From a virus (taxonomy: Duplodnaviria; Heunggongvirae; Uroviricota; Caudoviricetes), in the IMG/VR virus record IMGVR_UViG_3300021400_000028, positions 1 through 42,249 of that record: 42,249 bases of DNA. One strand, 5' to 3'. Below are positions 3,534-12,032 of the stretch, piece by piece (positions within the stretch are counted from its first letter, which is position 1; every line of letters begins with the position of its first letter). A model generated the notes under the pieces. That model ran no database searches. It was not told where the DNA came from and saw only the letters and a list, made by a program, of their open reading frames with translations. A program made the translations under genes and the position numbers.

Positions 3534-3815
3534 CTATATTTTACCAGAACAAATTCTTTCACCTAAATGATTGAAAATTGTAATAAAATTACCTATTATA
3601 ATATATCTATAACGAATATTGTTAAATTGATCTCTTAATACATATATTGCAGATCCTTCACTCCAATCTTCATATTCAAATTTATTAAAGATCTTTTTAA
3701 AACTACGAAATAGTCTATTATTTAAAGAATTACGTTCTTTTAAAAGACAATAAACATACGTTATTGTGAATGCTGTAATAAAATTAATCAATAATATGAT
3801 TAAAAAAGTTTTCAT
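3534..3815 (-). CDS. Small membrane protein
   Basis: 93 aa with an N-terminal hydrophobic helix. Confidence 0.65.
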   Translation of the reverse strand: MKTFLIILLINFITAFTITYVYCLLKERNSLNNRLFRSFKKIFNKFEYEDWSEGSAIYVLRDQFNNIRYRYIIIGNFITIFNHLGERICSGKI

Positions 3816-4231
3816 AACTCAATAAATGTGTTTTGTTTACTGTATTTCTCAAAATCATCGTATGTTTCAAAAATAATGAGATTATTAGAAACAATTTGGT
3901 TATCTAATCCAATAAAGTATTCACTACCTTTTGGAATAATTGCCAAATGTTTTATAGTTCCTCTATCTGCATAATAATTACAAAGATGTATACATTCTTC
4001 TTCTTTATAATATGAATGTAATCCATAGCTAACTATAACACTGGTATTTTTTTCTAAAAAATTACCAATGTTACATATTCCATTAACAAAAGTAATTCGA
4101 AAACCATAAAATGGTGTATAACAAACTAGATCGCTATGACATAGTGCCTTATATACAAGAATATTATCTTCCGCAATACGTGGTTTATCTAATTCATGTG
4201 AATGATAAATAAGAGATTTTACTAGACACAT
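3812..4231 (-). CDS. MCLV-family hypothetical protein, paralog 2
   Basis: 139 aa; GLHSY, HLAIIPKGSEYFIG, IVSNNLIIFE; TGA stop overlaps the next ATG. Confidence 0.8.
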   Translation of the reverse strand: MCLVKSLIYHSHELDKPRIAEDNILVYKALCHSDLVCYTPFYGFRITFVNGICNIGNFLEKNTSVIVSYGLHSYYKEEECIHLCNYYADRGTIKHLAIIPKGSEYFIGLDNQIVSNNLIIFETYDDFEKYSKQNTFIEL

Positions 4232-4323: not shown

Positions 4324-4662
4324 TTAAAAGAAATTGATAAGATCTAGAGAAGTAATCTTCATTCCTTTATTAGTTTGAATACGAAATAAACCTGAAGGAA
4401 GCAGTTTCATTTCGTAGATTTCATATAGATGCTTGAATAGTTTAGCACGAAGCTTTCCTTGACCTACATAGCCTTTGAAATCTTCTATAAATTCCTCATG
4501 ATTAAGTTCACGAAGATCACGAATGTTTTCAATTGGCCAAATAGTTAGGTTAGGGTGATCTTTCTTTAAATCTGAAATGACTGATGTAACTTCAGATGTC
4601 TTCACGTTAATTGAAGTAATGGAAAGACGATTAAACGGAGTGGATTGAATTAAGAGGTACAT
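4324..4662 (-). CDS. Hypothetical early protein
   Basis: 112-aa ORF followed by a hairpin at 4267-4298. Confidence 0.7.
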   Translation of the reverse strand: MYLLIQSTPFNRLSITSINVKTSEVTSVISDLKKDHPNLTIWPIENIRDLRELNHEEFIEDFKGYVGQGKLRAKLFKHLYEIYEMKLLPSGLFRIQTNKGMKITSLDLINFF

Positions 4663-4912
4663 AACTTTATGGTTTTAATTGTTAATAGTTGCCGTTAAAG
4701 GGAGGATGGTTCGATTTTTGATTGGATTGGATTTGAAGAAAAGGAAGGACGAGGAAATGGAACACTTCGCCCTTCCACACCATTAACACTAAAACCAAAT
4801 CATAACCAATCACACAAAATCGCTCAGAACTTTTCTATTCGGTCAGGAATGGAAAAATTAAAATATATTTACATGTACAGAGTATGATTTTATATCATTT
4901 TTTGTACAAAAA

Positions 4913-4944
4913 TTTGCAAAAATAAAAATTTATATTTATATTTG
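4913..4944 (+). promoter_or_regulatory. Bacteroidota primary-sigma promoter (-33 TTTG / -7 TAnnTTTG)
   Basis: TTTG 4913-4916, 20-nt spacer, TATATTTG 4937-4944; upstream of the iterons and Rep-like gene. Confidence 0.7.
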
Positions 4945-5016
4945 TATAGAAAACATTGATTATGATATTTAGCTCGCCTCGCGCGTATTAATTTACGAAG
5001 TAGTAAGTATAGTTAA

Positions 5017-5143
5017 TAAGTCTATAAGTCTATAAGTATATAAGTATAGTTTGGCACCTGAAAATGGCTTCTGCGCACCTGAAAATGGCTTCTGCGCACC
5101 TGGATTTTCATCCTGCGCACCTGAAAATTAAGTGTGCGCACCT
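5017..5143 (+). repeat. Iteron-like array plus AT-rich 8-mer repeats (putative replication origin)
   Basis: Four TAAGT(C/A)TA 8-mers (5017-5048), then GCACCT at 5054, 5075, 5096, 5117 and 5138 (exact 21-bp period); the first two 21-mers are identical (GCACCTGAAAATGGCTTCTGC). Confidence 0.8.
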
Positions 5144-5183
5144 ACATAAAAACTAACTTAAAACACTACAAAACTTTTTATTT

Positions 5184-6008
5184 ATGCAACATGCAGAAAT
5201 ACCAAATGTTTTAACGGAGTTAAAGTCAACAAATAACAAAACTCCATCACTTGAACCAGGAGACAAAGTTGTTTATGCTATTATAAGAATGCATATGAAT
5301 GAAACACGCACTTGTTTCCCATCTCAAGATTTAATTAAGAAGTACGCACATTGCGGACAGAAAAAAGTTGAAGATGCCATAAAACGTTTAGAAAAAGCCA
5401 AATTACTTAAAATTGGCAAAATTAAACTAGAAAATGGCAAATGGTCTAGATTATATACTATTCCCAAAACAGAATTTGATAAATCTTTTGAACGTTTTAC
5501 TCAGGATTTTCTAACAATGGACATTCCACTCCATTTAAAAGAATATATAATGGATCTACAAATATATATGTTCGTTCATCCAAATTCTAATTCTGCTGAT
5601 TTTAGCCAATCCAATCTAACGTTAGCCAAAAATACTGGATGAGATGTATCTCAAATAAATAAATTTGATAAACAATTAATTGAATTAGGAATAGAAAAAC
5701 AAGAACTATCTGGAAAGATTGATCAATCAGGATTACCTATAATGAAAAAGATTGTTAATTTAGACACAATTAATCAAGCCCAACTTTGAGTTCGAGCAGT
5801 AAACAATCAATTAAATGAAACTCAATTACAAGTTGATGAAGTAAACGATGCAGTAGATTCACTTCAAACAAAAGTGGATGATTTAACTCAAAGGGCTGCA
5901 ATACGAGATGAAATGATTGCAAAACAACAAGATGAAATTGAAAATCTTAAAAAATTACTTGTTGCTAATGGAATTGATATATCTCTTCAAAAAGAATATG
6001 AATTTTAA
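5184..6008 (+). CDS. Winged-helix (HTH_36-like) replication-initiator-like protein, 274 aa with TGA=Trp
   Basis: N-terminal VVYAIIRMH...CFPSQDLI...KVEDAIKRLEKAKLL wHTH; two in-frame TGA, after which the frame continues through a second HTH-like segment (LTLAKNTGWDVSQINK) and a coiled coil to TAA 6006-6008. Confidence 0.75.
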
Positions 6009-6080
6009 AAAAAATAACCTCCAGAGGAGCATCACACCCATCTGGAGGTCAAAAAACATAGCAAAGCTTCAGACAGCTTG

Positions 6081-6120
6081 GTGTCTTGGACTGGTTTCAT
6101 CCAATCCAAGACATTTTTTT
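6081..6120 (+). terminator. Intrinsic terminator
   Basis: TGTCTTGGA...TCCAAGACA stem followed by T7. Confidence 0.7.
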
Positions 6121-6121
6121 G

Positions 6122-6890
6122 TTTAGGCTGAGTCTTGACCTATACAATCACCATTTTCATCTCTTTGCGAGACTAGAACACATCCTTTTGGGATAGGTGA
6201 CACAGAGACGGATTCATAGGTTCCGCAACCACTACACTTAACGATATAAACTACTCCTTTCATTAGCTGTCCTTGCGAGTAAATGACATGCCTGCCAACC
6301 AGTTTAACTAATTGTTTCGCTTCACAGATTGCCTTGCGAGCTCACTGCGTCTCCATATTACAGGAGAATAACTCTGTTGTTGCTAAGTGTGCACAACACT
6401 TTTTGCTACTAAAATTCAACTTTTTGTAAAAATTAAAATTTTTGTAACAGATGACCTGATTAACCGTGTGGTTGTGCTTGAATAGAATGCAGCCTTTTGA
6501 GCTGTTTACCTATCAACACGGTTATGTTACTTGTCCGCCAAGACTTTCACTTTACTAATTGTTCGAACCTAAGATTTCTCTAATCTATAGACCGGCATGT
6601 CTATAGCACCAGCCACGGTGTAGGTCCACTAATTTTCATCATAGACGCTATAAGGATGGCTAATCCTGTTTGGCATCTAAGCAAGTATGTTTGTCCCTGT
6701 TACCAGGCAAGGAGAGATGGTCAATCCCTCCGTAACAACCTATCCACTCTGCCCGAGTGTACACCAGTCATTACTATGCATACTGTGGCTTTCTTATGAA
6801 CAGCATTTCTACTGCGCATCACCTCACTGTTAATGGTGACACTTTATCCTCTCACGAGTTTATTCTATCGACAAGAAGCCTGCCGTTACG
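6122..6890 (-). ncRNA. GOLLD-like giant structured RNA (~770 nt)
   Basis: ORF-free and richer in GC than its flanks; many hairpins including GNRA-type loops on the minus strand; two halves joined by an AT-rich linker (~6400-6445). Motif order (GATAAAGTG, ACACTCGGGCAGAGTGG, CTCAAAAGG, AAAAAGTGTT, GGAGTAGTT..AGTGGTT, CCCAAAAGG, terminal CTCAGCCT) matches my recollection of GOLLD-family sequences; not verified with a covariance model. Confidence 0.65.
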
Positions 6891-7328
6891 TGAAGACGTA
6901 AATAGAACCCCAGATTGATTTCACTCTTTCTGGGGTTTGTTGTTTTACAGGGAATAGGTTCATCACCCTGTGATGTAGTCTGAAGCCTGATCACTACTTC
7001 GGAGAGTTAGTTTAAAATGGACTCACAACCATACAACATAAAATAATAATGAAGTTGTTAATCGGTTACTCCAAGCCTAGCCGTTACTCAGAAGAAACCA
7101 CTTAAGGCTCTATTGCTGATTCACGTTACTGCAATATTACTCCAATCATGTTAGCCCGCATCATGCTTAGCGGGAGCCTTGGTTACCAAGCCCAGGATAA
7201 TGTAACTGTTGTATAGGATTCGCTACTCCTATTGGTCAGTCTCTCGTTTCCTCTTGAAACTACAAAGTCACCACAATATCTGTATTATAAGCCCAGGGTG
7301 TCAGCTAGTTAGTGTATGGCTAGCAAGC

Positions 7329-7439
7329 TTATTCCACTACATTCCCATATGTAAGCAACTGTGCTGCTTCATTAGAAGTAATAAGCCCAGAGGTGACTTC
7401 TGCACCTAAATCATCAATAAGATTTAATATCTCTTCCAT
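7329..7439 (-). CDS. Possible 36-aa peptide
   Basis: MEEILNLIDDLGAEVTSGLITSNEAAQLLTYGNVVE*; preceded by an AT-rich leader; overlaps a hairpin. Confidence 0.45.
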   Translation of the reverse strand: MEEILNLIDDLGAEVTSGLITSNEAAQLLTYGNVVE

Positions 7440-7483
7440 AGGGAATAATTTTAAATTAGAACTTTAGAAGAATATCACTTCTT

Positions 7484-7813
7484 CTAAAATTTGTTCGCTT
7501 CACGCTGGCAAATAAAGATTATTGCCTGTACCACATCAAAAGGAAGAATCTCTTTGTATGGTATAGCAATATCAATATCTACCCACTCTTCCTTCTCATT
7601 AGCTAAACAAAATGCCAACTTAGCACCTTGTTTATCTTTATAAGAAATTAGAGTCCATGAACCAACAACTAAATTATCCCTTTTGGATAGGATAATTCCA
7701 CATCTACCAAATGGATGCGATTCAACTACTACGAGTTGAGCATTACCATTTGCATAAATGCGATTGCAATTCATGATTTCACGAGCGGAACGGATGTTGA
7801 TGTTTTTGTTCAT
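7484..7813 (-). CDS. Hypothetical early protein
   Basis: 109-aa ORF with an AT-rich leader. Confidence 0.7.
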   Translation of the reverse strand: MNKNINIRSAREIMNCNRIYANGNAQLVVVESHPFGRCGIILSKRDNLVVGSWTLISYKDKQGAKLAFCLANEKEEWVDIDIAIPYKEILPFDVVQAIIFICQREANKF

Positions 7814-7853
7814 AATTTTCTTGGTTTTGGTTTAATAAAATAATAAATAAAAA

Positions 7854-7881
7854 CTCAGTCGTATCTCACGACAAGACTGAG
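7854..7881 (-). terminator. GUGA-tetraloop hairpin plus U-tract (copy 2)
   Basis: CTCAGTC-TTGTC-GTGA-GATAC-GACTGAG followed by TTTTTATTT. Confidence 0.55.
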
Positions 7882-8104
7882 AAACCGAACATGAAAAACA
7901 ACATCTGGAACCCTGAATTGATATCACTCTCATCAGGGTTAAAACTATTTCATTACATAGATTGTTCAGTACAATCTACAAAACTTTTGACTTCATATCT
8001 TGGTTTGTCGTCTATATTTCCTCAATATCACAATCCTCAATAACCATAAACATTCTCAAGGATTGGATCAGTAAGATAAAAACGACCTAAACTACTATCA
8101 ATTC

Positions 8105-8126
8105 AAAGGTCTCCGGAGAGACCTTT
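8105..8126 (-). terminator. Hairpin or terminator after 8140..8604
   Basis: AAAGGTCTC..GAGACCTTT inverted repeat. Confidence 0.55.
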
Positions 8127-8139
8127 GATTGTAATGAGT

Positions 8140-8604
8140 CTAGGATTCAAACTCAAGAACAGGATAAGTTACCATCCGCTCGACACCACCAAAGTTGCTC
8201 TTGCAGCGTTCGGTATTAACAACTTTAAGTGTCTTACCCAGAAGAGCAACACCAAGGTCATACGGATTATCAAACTTGTTGACAAAATCCGCAATCTTCG
8301 GGCTAATCAGATGTCCATCACCATTGAAGTCGGTGCGAGTGAAAGTACCCACGGCAATAGTACGATCCTTGCCGTTCACCTTAGCACCAAGATAGTACGT
8401 AACACGTACATCTTCACCTTCCTGCTGAGCCTGAGGCTGTTTGTACAACTCAACACTATCCCAAGGGAAAGTAATGGTTGCACCCATAGGCAACTGACTT
8501 ACACCAGTCAGATTAGCCTGCTTGCCTTCTTCTGCAGATACTTTTGAAACAGGACGCGCTTCCGATTCGCCGCGCATCCTAGGACGAATAAATTCGTTTG
8601 CCAT
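8140..8604 (-). CDS. GC-rich early protein, paralog of 9363..9848
   Basis: 154 aa; shares NGK, F.R..FNG, DL..L..GK and G..ER.V.Y.V patterns with 9363..9848. Confidence 0.8.
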   Translation of the reverse strand: MANEFIRPRMRGESEARPVSKVSAEEGKQANLTGVSQLPMGATITFPWDSVELYKQPQAQQEGEDVRVTYYLGAKVNGKDRTIAVGTFTRTDFNGDGHLISPKIADFVNKFDNPYDLGVALLGKTLKVVNTERCKSNFGGVERMVTYPVLEFES

Positions 8605-8793
8605 AATCTAAAAAATATTAAAAATTACACAAAATTGTGCTTCCTACAAAAAATATAAGGACTCGTTTACACCTTACTGTAGAGACTTTAAACTCACTCT
8701 ATCTTCATTACTGCATGATAGATGCCATCTCCTTTGTGCAGTAAACTAAACTGCCAAGATTGTTTTCTTTATACTCGATTCACACTTCGAGTC

Positions 8794-8848
8794 GCTGTTT
8801 CGTCTTAATTTGCAAAGACTCATCAGAGGACATCTACATCCTAACAGC
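8794..8848 (-). ncRNA. Type III hammerhead ribozyme
   Basis: Minus strand GCUGU-U^AGGAU-GUAGAU-GUCCU-CUGAUGA-GUCUU-UGCAAAUU-AAGAC-GAA-ACAGC: complete CUGANGA/GAAA core with three intact stems; GUU triplet, predicted cut between 8843 and 8842. Confidence 0.9.
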
Positions 8849-9338
8849 CTGGTTCTAAATATAAACCAGAAAGTTACCACGTCTTACACCATCGCACATA
8901 CAGTAAGTGGGACTGTATTGGTGGGCATCCTGGATTGTGCCAGGTCACTAAAATTTTAGCGTGCGAAGCCGAGACATTTCAATCGCCTATGAAATGCTAC
9001 TCTCCCAGAACCCTACTCCGACACAGTTATGCTGGTAGTTCACTGTGAAGCTGCTCCTGATTTTTTGAAATCATACACCAAGGAATAGAGCATACTCTCA
9101 GACTAGGAACAGAATCATCCTACCCTCTGCTCTATTGCGCATCCTTGGATAAAGCAAAATTATGTATACTCTTATGTGTTGGGCCAGGATAGGAGCCAAC
9201 TTTATACAGTATACCGTAGATACCGCTACGACGGAATTAAACATAAAATTTTAGCAGTATTTACTACTACTACATATTAGCATTGTCTTAGTCTCTATAT
9301 TGGAATTGTCTTAGTCTCCCTGTGTGAGAAGTAAAATA

Positions 9339-9366
9339 AAAAGTGGGGTAAACCCCCACTTTTTAT
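9339..9366 (-). terminator. Intrinsic terminator at the end of 9363..9848
   Basis: AAAAGTGGGG-TAAAC-CCCCACTTTT. Confidence 0.7.
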
Positions 9367-9848
9367 TTAACATCGAACACAGAGTATGCCACGGAGCGTT
9401 CTGCAGTTTGACCATACGGAACCTCCTTGTTGTAGATAATGTCCACGCAGACAATTTTCTTGCCTGCGTAGGCACCGCTCTTGTCAAGGACCGCATCGAG
9501 GTCACCAGCATCCCCACAGCCATTCAGCAACTGCTGGAACGGAGTGAGTTGCTTCATCTGCTCTTCGGTGAACCCGTTAAAGGGTCTCCGAAGGAAGATG
9601 CTGGCACTCACGCCACCTTCCACGGCCTTACCGTTGCGCGTGCCTTCGAAATAGGCATACTTACGGTCTTCATCGTGCTTCTTGCCGTTCCTGTCAGTCC
9701 AACCGCTCTCAATGGCGTACTTGCCAGTAAGCACAAATTCTGTGTCTTTTGCAACCTGTCCGGCGTTGCGACCGTTCACTCCCACGAGACTCCCCTCGCG
9801 AGCGAAAACACGCTCCATTGCCATATGTGTAATGAAATAGTTACGCAT
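9363..9848 (-). CDS. GC-rich early protein, paralog of 8140..8604
   Basis: 161 aa; visibly more GC-rich than the rest of the window; terminator at the stop codon. Confidence 0.8.
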   Translation of the reverse strand: MRNYFITHMAMERVFAREGSLVGVNGRNAGQVAKDTEFVLTGKYAIESGWTDRNGKKHDEDRKYAYFEGTRNGKAVEGGVSASIFLRRPFNGFTEEQMKQLTPFQQLLNGCGDAGDLDAVLDKSGAYAGKKIVCVDIIYNKEVPYGQTAERSVAYSVFDVK

Positions 9849-10098
9849 TGGTATAGTCTTAGTCTCGAAAATTTGAAAAATCAGACCCTCCCCCGGTCAA
9901 TGGATTTTCTGAATCGATTTCCCCATTCGCTAGGGCGGGGGTCTATATACATTAACACTTCTTACGTATGCATAACACACATATGTTTATAATCTATTTT
10001 GCCAACAACATGACAAATTTAACAAATGCTAACATATCTCTAATATTTTTAATTTCGCTAATTTTTATTAATTTTTTATACATCACCCGTCCTAAAAA

Positions 10099-10130
10099 TT
10101 TGGGAAATTAAATTATTTTTCGTATATTTG
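10099..10130 (+). promoter_or_regulatory. Bacteroidota primary-sigma promoter
   Basis: TTTG 10099-10102, 20-nt spacer, TATATTTG 10123-10130. Confidence 0.7.
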
Positions 10131-10167
10131 TAATGTAGGTTGAAGTTTAACTTAAAATAATAAATAT

Positions 10168-10582
10168 ATGAAAATAAACACAGAATTAATTTTTAGAGCC
10201 ATTTGCTCATCAACACACAATTTGTAAGAAATGTTATAACACATTAGATAGAAATCGAAGGTCTTATGCTGAAAGATTATATAAAAATTCTAAACATAAT
10301 TCAAAAAACTATAATGCACCATATGATTTAACAATGGAGTATATACAAGAATTATTAGAAAAACAAAACTACAAATGTGCATATTCAAGAATACCTTTTT
10401 CAAATGATAAAAAAGACAAATATACTTATCCAACAATAGATAGAATTGATTCTACAAAAGGTTATGTTAAGGGGAATGTTTGTATATGTACGCTTTTTGT
10501 TAATATAATGAAAAACAATGCAACAGTAGACCAATTCAAAGATATCATAACTAAAATATATAACAACAAAGACAACTTTTAA
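10168..10582 (+). pseudogene. HNH-type (endonuclease VII-like) homing endonuclease with a frameshifted 5' end
   Basis: Frame open from 10190 contains CKKC..., KCAYS, PTIDRIDSTKGYVKGNV and VNIMKN; the ATG behind the promoter (10168) is in another frame; first in-frame ATG is 10334. Confidence 0.65.
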
Positions 10583-10640
10583 TGAAGTTGTCTTTTTTGT
10601 ATATAACAAAAAAATCCTCAGCTATTGCTAAGGATTAAAA
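10568..10640. terminator. Pair of hairpins between convergent genes
   Basis: AAAGACAACTT..AAGTTGTCTTTTT and AATCCT..AGGATT. Confidence 0.6.
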
Positions 10641-12032
10641 TTATTTTCTAATATTAACAAAACCGTCTGGAACAATAGTGCCAACAAATGTATTACCTCA
10701 TGGAGCAGTTTTTCCAGAAATATTTGTATATGGAAAAGTAGTTTCCATTGTTCATGGTTTTCCTCCAATTAACGGTCCGACTTCAAAATTGGCAATTTTA
10801 CTATCAATTGCTTTTGTAATAGAATTTTTAGTAAGTTTATCTATAATATTATCAGCATATCTTGGAATTTCTACAAAATCAACATATGGCTCTCCATTGA
10901 TAACTGTAGATACATCTTTCACACCTGTACGATATATGTTTAATGGTCTATCTAATCACTTTGTTGTTTTACCAAGTATTGTCTTAGACTTATTACCCAT
11001 ATTACTTCAATATCCTTTATCATACATATAAGTACGTAATTTTTGTATTCTATCTCGTCATGTATCTGTACCAATATGTCTTTTTAATCGTTGATTAAGT
11101 CTATCAGAAATTACTCTATCACCAGAACGTTCAAATGGGTTCAAATCTCAAACATCCTTCATGTAGATATCTCCGTATTTATATAAATCTGTACCGGTAT
11201 TAATTTGATCAATAGGAAAATGAGCAACGTCATGTAAACCACCATGTGCGTGTGCTAAATAATCGCGTTTATTATCTATAAATACATGTGGATCATTAAT
11301 CTTCATCCCTAAAAATTTATCAATATTATAAGAATAAGTTCCATCTGCATTTTTAACATAAATCCCGTTTTTTGGAGTTTGTCCTGTGTATATAGCAAAA
11401 GCGTCTTCTCTTGCCAGTTTCATCATTTTTTGTTGATTTGGACGTGATTGTAATACACTTTTTATAGTTTCATCTTCTTTACGTGTCCCATTTCATACAG
11501 GTTTGTTATATTTTTTTTCTAGAAACATACTTTTTACAAACTCCTTACCACGACCAATTGGATCATCATAGCCATATGGAAATATTGTATTATAAGCGTG
11601 ATATCCACGATACGCTTTATTACCAATTTTTGCGGCTATTCTAACTGCGTCTCCAGCACCAATTAAATCCATACTATCTCCTAATCCAGATAATATTGCT
11701 TTACCATAATCGCCATTTTTTGTTAAACGAATTGTTTTAGATATACCATTATCTGTAGTAAGATTTCGTATTCCATCTGCAGTACCAACTATGTCTAATA
11801 TTCTCATTGCGGCAGGATTAGTAAAAACATACGGTGATAACGATACCGCTGTTGTAGCGAGTGTTGCAATTCCACGATCTTTATATATTTCATCTCTTTT
11901 TTCTTGTGTATCGGCAGCATTTGCTTGTTCTATGGTAGAATTTAAAATTCTTTCTCCAGCAGACTCTTCGCTTTGTGGTACATACTTACTAGATCAAGAA
12001 TTTAAACGTTGTAATCATTTTGGTATACCCAT
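10641..12032 (-). CDS. Modular polymorphic or cargo-like protein, 463 aa (TGA=Trp)
   Basis: One frame joins ORFs 11493..11807 and 11148..11426 through TGA only; Gly/Ala-rich helical N-half; C-terminal domain with HGG...YMKDVWDLNPF...EVGPLIGGKPW. Confidence 0.75.

Follow-up and report, generated by a model that had tools for sequence, protein, structure and literature searches.

Introduction

Since 2011, prophages have been known to carry hammerhead ribozymes next to genes, and these ribozymes cut long transcripts in vitro (PMC3088659); what purpose they serve in phages and bacteria is still open (PMC6765202). The cleavage reaction leaves 2',3'-cyclic phosphate and 5'-OH ends (PMC6765202). The hammerhead of HF1/HF2, the haloarchaeal HHphage, precedes the first gene of a polycistronic early RNA, within the leader, and a 5' end has been mapped at most 3 nt from its cleavage site (PMC3088659). 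It has an atypical core insertion and stands 13 nt from the start codon.

Here we analyse a hammerhead in a stretch of 42,249 nt (hereafter, the window), with which a virus record in IMG/VR begins. The record has 170,249 bp and terminal repeats and is rated complete. The ribozyme has the same catalytic core, three-stem architecture and open stem III as the type III hammerheads of phages and prophages (RF00008, PMC3088659). These likewise lie in intergenic or leader positions on the coding strand, and the same role, the cutting of long transcripts, has been proposed for them (PMC3088659). It differs from them in scoring below the Rfam gathering threshold, in having the cleavage triplet GUU instead of GUC, and in being flanked by structured RNAs instead of protein genes. 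In contrast to HHphage, its core is canonical, and it lies 190 nt upstream of the start codon with another structured RNA in between. The window ribozyme adds one more instance to a kind that is already well known and frequent in phages, and it does not represent a new kind of element.

Results

A complete type III hammerhead on the minus strand

The ribozyme spans 55 nt of the minus strand (8794..8848) and has a complete core, as indicated by sequence reading, the Rfam model RF00008, the minimum free energy (MFE) fold and covariation. Sequence reading and alignment give the same order along the RNA. The 5' strand of stem III (GCUGU, 8848-8844, with U16.1 at 8844) is followed by H17, a U at 8843, and by hairpin I, the core segment CUGAUGA (8826-8820), hairpin II and the core segment GAAA (8801-8798). 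The 3' strand of stem III (ACAGC, 8798-8794, including A15.1) ends the motif and pairs with the 5' strand. Stem I (AGGAUG/UGUCCU, 8842-8837 with 8832-8827) includes two G-U pairs and carries the loop UAGA, and stem II (GUCUU/AAGAC, 8819-8815 with 8806-8802) carries the 8-nt loop UGCAAAUU. Loops close stems I and II while stem III opens to the flanks, which is the type III topology, and the three stems count 6, 5 and 5 pairs. All required core nucleotides are present (C3 U4 G5 A6 N7 G8 A9, G12 A13 A14, A15.1-U16.1, and an H17 other than G), and the core-adjacent pairs A1.1-U2.1, G10.1-C11.1 and A15.1-U16.1 are all Watson-Crick, with no mispair. By its sequence, the motif agrees with the acceptance rules of Perreault et al. 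2011, which concern the core positions and the core-adjacent pairs (PMC3088659). The scissile bond is predicted to lie between U17 (8843) and A1.1 (8842) on the minus strand, a placement given by the hammerhead consensus, the RF00008 alignment and the numbering of PMC3088659. Cleavage there would give a 5' product with GCUGUU and a 2',3'-cyclic phosphate at its end, and a 3' product whose first nucleotides, AGGAUG, carry a 5'-OH.

An earlier sequence-only reading of the window had claimed an intact type III hammerhead with a GUU triplet, about 190 nt upstream of the start at 8604. All three statements are borne out: core, stems and type III order are complete from 8848 to 8794 on the minus strand, H17 is the U at 8843, and the ATG at 8604 is 190 nt downstream of the end of the motif. 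The Rfam search that the same reading had proposed gives a two-sided result. RF00008 matches the motif over the full model with 37 bits, below the gathering score of 48.5 bits, which is an operational criterion and not a defining trait, and a scan at gathering thresholds reports nothing. The E-value is 1.7e-6 when 451 nt are searched and 1.6e-4 when both strands of the 42-kb window are, and the match is the only one to this model in the whole 170,249-bp genome. Three relatives (L127, L132 and L053) pass the gathering score with 48.5-49.8 bits. A core scan that we ran over the genome gave no further hammerhead candidate with a G10.1-C11.1 stem II. The hammerhead is the MFE structure of a 63-nt piece and also part of the MFE structure of 296 nt of context; its folding-energy z of -1.25 is not exceptional. 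As a prediction from sequence, the motif is confirmed as a genuine hammerhead of the self-cleaving type.

GUU appears to be an accepted variant of the cleavage triplet

In minimal hammerheads, U at H17 is usually less favoured than C. Among 14 type III sequences, the triplet is GUC in 11, GUA in one and GUU in two, the window and L133. The one with GUA, in the contig L130, is the closest hammerhead to that of the window, with 53 of 55 nt identical (96%). Of the distinct type II phage hammerheads that we parsed, 12 out of 94 carry GUU (~13%, among the matches listed), and one homologous group of type II ribozymes carries either GUU or GUC. Because the triplet is kept in L133, alternates with GUC in L148 (both of them variants of the same locus, see below) and makes up about 13% of the parsed type II sequences, we read it as accepted, and it looks like an ordinary minority variant instead of a defect. 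GUU is also among the active NUH sites in the ribozyme-design literature (PMC3138052), in agreement with the sequence-only reading, which counted it as a cleavable NUH triplet. The further suggestion, that cleavage might be slow or partial, had rested on GUU alone and is not upheld by these comparisons.

Covariation and variation at the same locus

When IMG/VR was searched with an exact pattern of the core and stem II (CTGATGAGTCTT, a gap of 4-14 nt, AAGACGAAAC), at least 119 phage contigs matched; among the matches listed, most are type II and lie just after stop codons. When the loop I word UGUAGA was also required, a second scan returned 18 contigs, nearly all of them with type III hammerheads. 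We aligned 13 distinct type III sequences, the window and 12 relatives from other phage contigs. In this alignment 96.4% of the cells are paired, and compensatory double changes occur in 8 of 17 pairs, spread over all three stems. The alignment has a covariation score of 0.505, compared with 0.169 for shuffles, 0 of 500 of which reach 0.505, and sliding the partner columns by 1-3 lowers the pairing to 28-61%. Compensatory changes are found in 4 of 5 pairs of stem I among the relatives, the fourth pair of stem II changes from U-A to G-C in five of them, and the outermost pair of stem III covaries, being G-C, A-U or U-A. Because the core, loop I and most of stem II were part of the search patterns, core conservation among the relatives is by construction, and the independent covariation signal is that of stems I and III and of one stem II pair. 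The loop I region UGUAGAU and loop II (UGCAAAUU) are conserved across the type III family, with two loop II positions that change jointly.

Variants of the same locus allow a closer view. In L133, where the downstream protein is 86% identical and the DNA flanks are ~81% identical, the hammerhead is kept at the same place, with GUU and an Rfam score of 36.8 bits. Its pair A1.1-U2.1 is replaced by G-C, and its two-base change in loop II recurs in other members of the family. In L148 the downstream protein is identical and only 3 of 151 nt around the ribozyme differ from the window; the changes are U17 to C and, again, A1.1-U2.1 to G-C. Variation at the locus is thereby limited to the one core position where change is tolerated (U or C at H17) and to a compensatory 1.1/2.1 pair, and this is, at the level of sequence, the pattern that selection for an active ribozyme predicts. 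The hammerhead of a third contig, L143, lies within a 99.8% identical block of a mosaic, near-identical variant and is therefore not independent evidence.

The genome and the genes around the ribozyme

Reading TGA as sense raises the coverage of the genome by long ORFs from 60% to 91%, and the large terminase is 29-46% identical to those of Crassvirales phages. DNA of the phage is present in sheep, goat and bovine gut metagenomes. We assign the genome to a TGA-recoded crAss-like rumen phage. ARAGORN found seven tRNAs in the genome, all at 142-154 kb and none in the window, and none of the seven has the anticodon UCA; decoding of TGA may be native to the host, or a suppressor tRNA may have been missed. 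At 142354-142431 there is a tRNA-like gene with an irregular anticodon loop, reported as 'taag'.

The region 6000-10000 has few ORFs and a GC content above the 32% background. The first gene in the local order, on the minus strand, is GC-rich (~9824-9363). It is followed by a terminator, a hairpin with a U-run (9355-9325), which we read from the sequence and which an automated terminator scan did not list. Next comes a promoter-like motif of 22 nt (repeat family D1), GAGACTAAGACAAT plus 8 nt, in two tandem copies (9274..9318, minus strand), with a third copy at 9866-9845 (minus strand). Elsewhere in the 170-kb genome, with up to 2 mismatches, it has only two weaker matches, at 10991 (minus) and 1799 (plus). 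The motif resembles neither the sigma-70 nor the Bacteroidota consensus. It is kept upstream of a variable slot in four relatives (L134, L136, L137 and L140), and RNA contig ends at 9255 and 9823 fall 19-22 nt downstream of where a motif copy stops. We infer that it is probably a dedicated promoter.

Downstream of the ribozyme lies P0001, a gene of 154 aa (8140..8604, minus strand) that has no in-frame TGA and is followed by a gene of 109 aa. Its product has 26 homologues with 44-89% identity and no Pfam or PHROG family. The AF2 model is confident (pLDDT 86.8), and its best fold matches are weak (Foldseek E = 0.15). The resemblance to small phage single-stranded-DNA-binding proteins, best for that of phage Pf3 (VIA-align Z = 3.9, rmsd 3.3 Å over 70 aligned residues), is too weak for a fold to be named. 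The genes at 9363-9824 and 8140-8604, both on the minus strand, have 47-56% GC in a genome of 32% GC; their products are weakly alike (BLASTP E = 0.013), the former, like P0001, being outside the Pfam and PHROG families. A blastn search of 6000-10700 against INPHARED phages gave no match, and pattern searches in IMG/VR found no relatives of the two flanking proteins.

A probable GOLLD RNA, of a kind known from phages and prophages (PMC5737381), lies on the same strand about 1.9 kb downstream of the ribozyme (6113..6891, minus). Rfam RF02032 matches it at 6521-6125, over the full 416-position model of the 3' domain, with 74 bits (gathering score 150) and E = 1.8e-17, and we took its extent from homology to L139 and L136; the homologue in L136 scores 86.9 bits. 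Blocks of this neighbourhood are rearranged among relatives, namely GOLLD and the conserved non-coding blocks at 7125-7241 and 7332-7495 (minus strand), the last two being shuffled among L133, L137, L139 and L141.

The hammerhead joins two structured RNAs in a variable slot

Upstream of the ribozyme, the region from the putative transcription start to the motif is a conserved structured non-coding RNA of ~400 nt, which we call module A (8849..9255, minus strand) and which is supported by conservation in L133, L136 and L143 and by RNAalifold. Its fold, computed from the window and these three relatives (n=4), has 75 pairs, 18 of them with a compensatory change, and includes a long-range closing helix. 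The last hairpin, CUGGUUU..AACCAG, ends one base before the hammerhead. The module has no credible ORF, and its folding z of -1.85 is unpersuasive alone. A pattern for module A gave no match in IMG/VR and one contig in metagenomes, L143. In that otherwise near-identical contig, the middle part of the module (8924-9090) is divergent, which points to recombination inside the module A RNA.

On the other side, module B (8640..8793, minus strand, ~150 nt) is another structured RNA, conserved in L133 and L136. It opens right after the hammerhead with the hairpin ACUCGA..UCGAGU and ends in a terminator-like hairpin with a U run; RNAalifold on three sequences gives 46 pairs, 10 of them compensatory. 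Modules A and B are both without a match in Rfam, in searches that admitted E up to 10 for 8600-9050 and up to 1 for the entire window and that gave no group I intron either. The hammerhead sits exactly at the joint of A and B. In L133 an insertion of ~200 nt, relative to the window, directly follows the hammerhead, and a second one, with an ORF of 87 aa, lies between module B and the gene (L133:3248-3451 and 3592-3962 cover both insertions).

The slot between the promoter-like motif and the 154-aa gene has variable content among relatives. It holds A, hammerhead and B in the window and in L133, B then A with no hammerhead in L136, small ORFs in L137, L139 and L140, and neither modules nor hammerhead in L134 and L135. 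The only element that this locus has in common with more than 100 other hammerhead-bearing contigs is the ribozyme, without its flanks. We read the hammerhead, from these sequence comparisons, as an independent module that marks the A/B joint here.

Related hammerheads have other neighbours. The type II hammerheads of the pattern GUCUU-UGAAAAUU-AAGAC, found in the 119 or more IMG/VR contigs, are, like the window ribozyme, intergenic in large phage genomes and are nearly identical to it in stem II, loop II and core; the window is identical over 30-34 nt to those of L008, L087 and L120. They differ by circular permutation, being open at stem I, whereas the window ribozyme is open at stem III. 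Sister hammerheads of type III lie 55 nt upstream of a tRNA in L130, between small same-strand ORFs in L053, and between RAGATH-14 and RAGATH-6 RNAs, on one strand, in an RNA array of the crAss-like L026. The last one has the same loop I word UGUAGA and the same stem II. On the minus strand of that contig (L026:8252-9087 and 4619-7028) we observed RAGATH-14, the type III hammerhead, RAGATH-6, RAGATH-7, three hatchet ribozymes, RAGATH-9, a tRNA and a permuted tmRNA, all of which pass their gathering scores. In contrast to this array, modules A and B belong to none of the RAGATH or other families in Rfam, the window has no hatchet, twister or pistol at E up to 1, and the neighbour of its ribozyme is a GOLLD RNA.

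RNA-library contigs cover the leader

The RNA data consist of assembled Logan contigs from four ruminant metatranscriptome runs of 3 studies, compared with 5800-10800, and RNA ends are not readable from them. Contigs cover 7985-8826 and 8894-9255, with upstream ends at 9248-9255 in all 3 studies, which fit a transcription start ~20 nt after the repeat motif. These contigs agree with the claim, made from sequence alone, that the ribozyme lies in the untranslated leader of the gene starting at 8604, on the transcribed strand. The companion idea that it processes a polycistronic RNA stands as to the location in a leader and has to be revised as to the RNA, which would be a ~650-nt leader of modules A and B starting at ~9255 and not a train of protein genes. 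Summed contig depth, a poor measure of expression, is higher for module A than for the gene and far higher for the GOLLD region. The bin 7136-7302 has the highest depth in run X9 (~1500).

Gene-side contigs stop at 8819-8826, upstream-side contigs start at 8878-8894, and none of those listed bridges 8843/8842. We rejected this gap as a sign of cleavage, since the stops fit branching of an assembly graph with k = 31. The segment 8794-8830 is common to many other hammerheads, one contig continues into foreign sequence at 8826, and the start at 8894 is 30 nt inside a block (8878-8923) common to a module A variant. One Logan contig, L147, from a library whose type is not known, crosses the ribozyme.

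Discussion

We consider it likely that the motif is a functional type III hammerhead, which would cleave co-transcriptionally and free module A from module B and the mRNA. The points that we count in favour are the complete core, the E-value of 1.6e-4, the covariation, the same-locus variants, the position at the A/B joint, the RNA neighbours of the hammerheads in L026 and L130, and the presence of the region in RNA libraries. Those that we count against are the score below the gathering threshold, the search patterns that fixed the core of the relatives, a stem III of only 5 pairs, the U at H17, and relatives that thrive without the ribozyme (L134 and L135, which have neither A, B nor hammerhead, and L136, with B then A), so that any benefit would be dispensable. 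We infer cleavage in vivo, as well as the promoter and the effect of cleavage.

The proposed course of events is as follows. Transcription would start near 9255 on the minus strand, ~20 nt downstream of the promoter-like tandem repeat, and would yield module A (~400 nt), the hammerhead, module B (~150 nt) and the 154-aa gene at 8604, in this order. The ribozyme would fold once the 3' strand of stem III (8798-8794) is made, the conserved loops of stems I and II would dock, and the 2'-OH of U17 (8843) would attack the next phosphate. The products would be held by only 5 base pairs of stem III, so that module A would leave as a free RNA, carrying at its end six ribozyme nucleotides, GCUGUU, with a 2',3'-cyclic phosphate. 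Module B and the mRNA would keep the body of the ribozyme as a structured cap with a 5'-OH. From then on the two RNAs could have separate fates in stability, folding and translation.

An alternative that we find unlikely, though the least so of those considered, is that the ribozyme is active without function, a passenger: a mobile 55-nt module that moves from one phage genome to another and cuts at any site it reaches, with no benefit to the transcription unit. Near-identical hammerheads do occur in unrelated contexts, such as the one in L130 (96% identity) upstream of tRNAs, the ribozyme is common to more than 100 other contigs without its flanks, and close relatives of the locus lack it. 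However, the same-locus variants differ by changes that preserve activity, at H17 and in the 1.1/2.1 pair, and the ribozyme is placed exactly at module boundaries, both here and in L026. Selection for activity, alone, does not establish a benefit to the phage.

It is improbable that the ribozyme is a slow or partial cleaver serving as a tuning device, with full-length and cut RNAs coexisting in a ratio that sets expression, as the sequence-only reading had suggested. The GUU triplet, where 11 of 14 family members have GUC, and the 5 pairs of stem III would suit such a device, but L133 keeps GUU, the triplet is common in the parsed type II phage hammerheads (12/94, among the matches listed), and the loops used for fast folding are conserved.

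We give very little credence to a motif that arose by chance or has decayed, and that would have no catalytic activity. The Rfam score under the gathering threshold and the folding z of only -1.25 would agree with decay, and are set against the E-value of 1.6e-4, the full core, the covariation in the family and the activity-preserving variation at the locus.

Cyclic phosphate and 5'-OH ends, as left by hammerheads, are substrates of RtcB-type ligases. That the ribozyme makes one end of a circular or spliced RNA, through two cleavages and a ligation for which its product ends are suited, is nevertheless hardly credible, since there is no RtcB in the phage genome, the hammerhead is single, with no other self-cleaving ribozyme family in the window or the genome at the thresholds applied (Rfam searches admitting E up to 10 for 8600-9050 and up to 1 for the entire window gave no twister, pistol or hatchet), and the prophage cases showed no circular or spliced products (PMC3088659).

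If the hammerhead frees module A, as we think likely, it may have a place in a larger scheme, which we put forward tentatively and with less than even confidence. The hammerhead could serve as punctuation between phage non-coding RNAs in a cassette system that is modular and recombines; in this group of crAss-like rumen phages, the slot from promoter to gene would be a cargo slot for interchangeable structured RNAs or small ORFs. Its cleavage would release the ~400-nt module A as a stable, free-standing RNA with a function of its own, near the highly expressed GOLLD RNA.

What is new here is modest, namely the position of a hammerhead between two structured RNAs outside Rfam in a variable slot, close to GOLLD in a crAss-like phage with a recoded genome. 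Since the phage is uncultured and the ribozyme itself is unsurprising, the locus has its value as a well-defined test case and not as a discovery. It connects a hammerhead with large structured RNAs of phages, here GOLLD and modules A and B, all of them found in rumen metatranscriptome assemblies. It also provides a natural comparison set, in which, among closely related phages, the same promoter and the same downstream gene enclose A, hammerhead and B, or B and A without a ribozyme, or small ORFs, or nothing.
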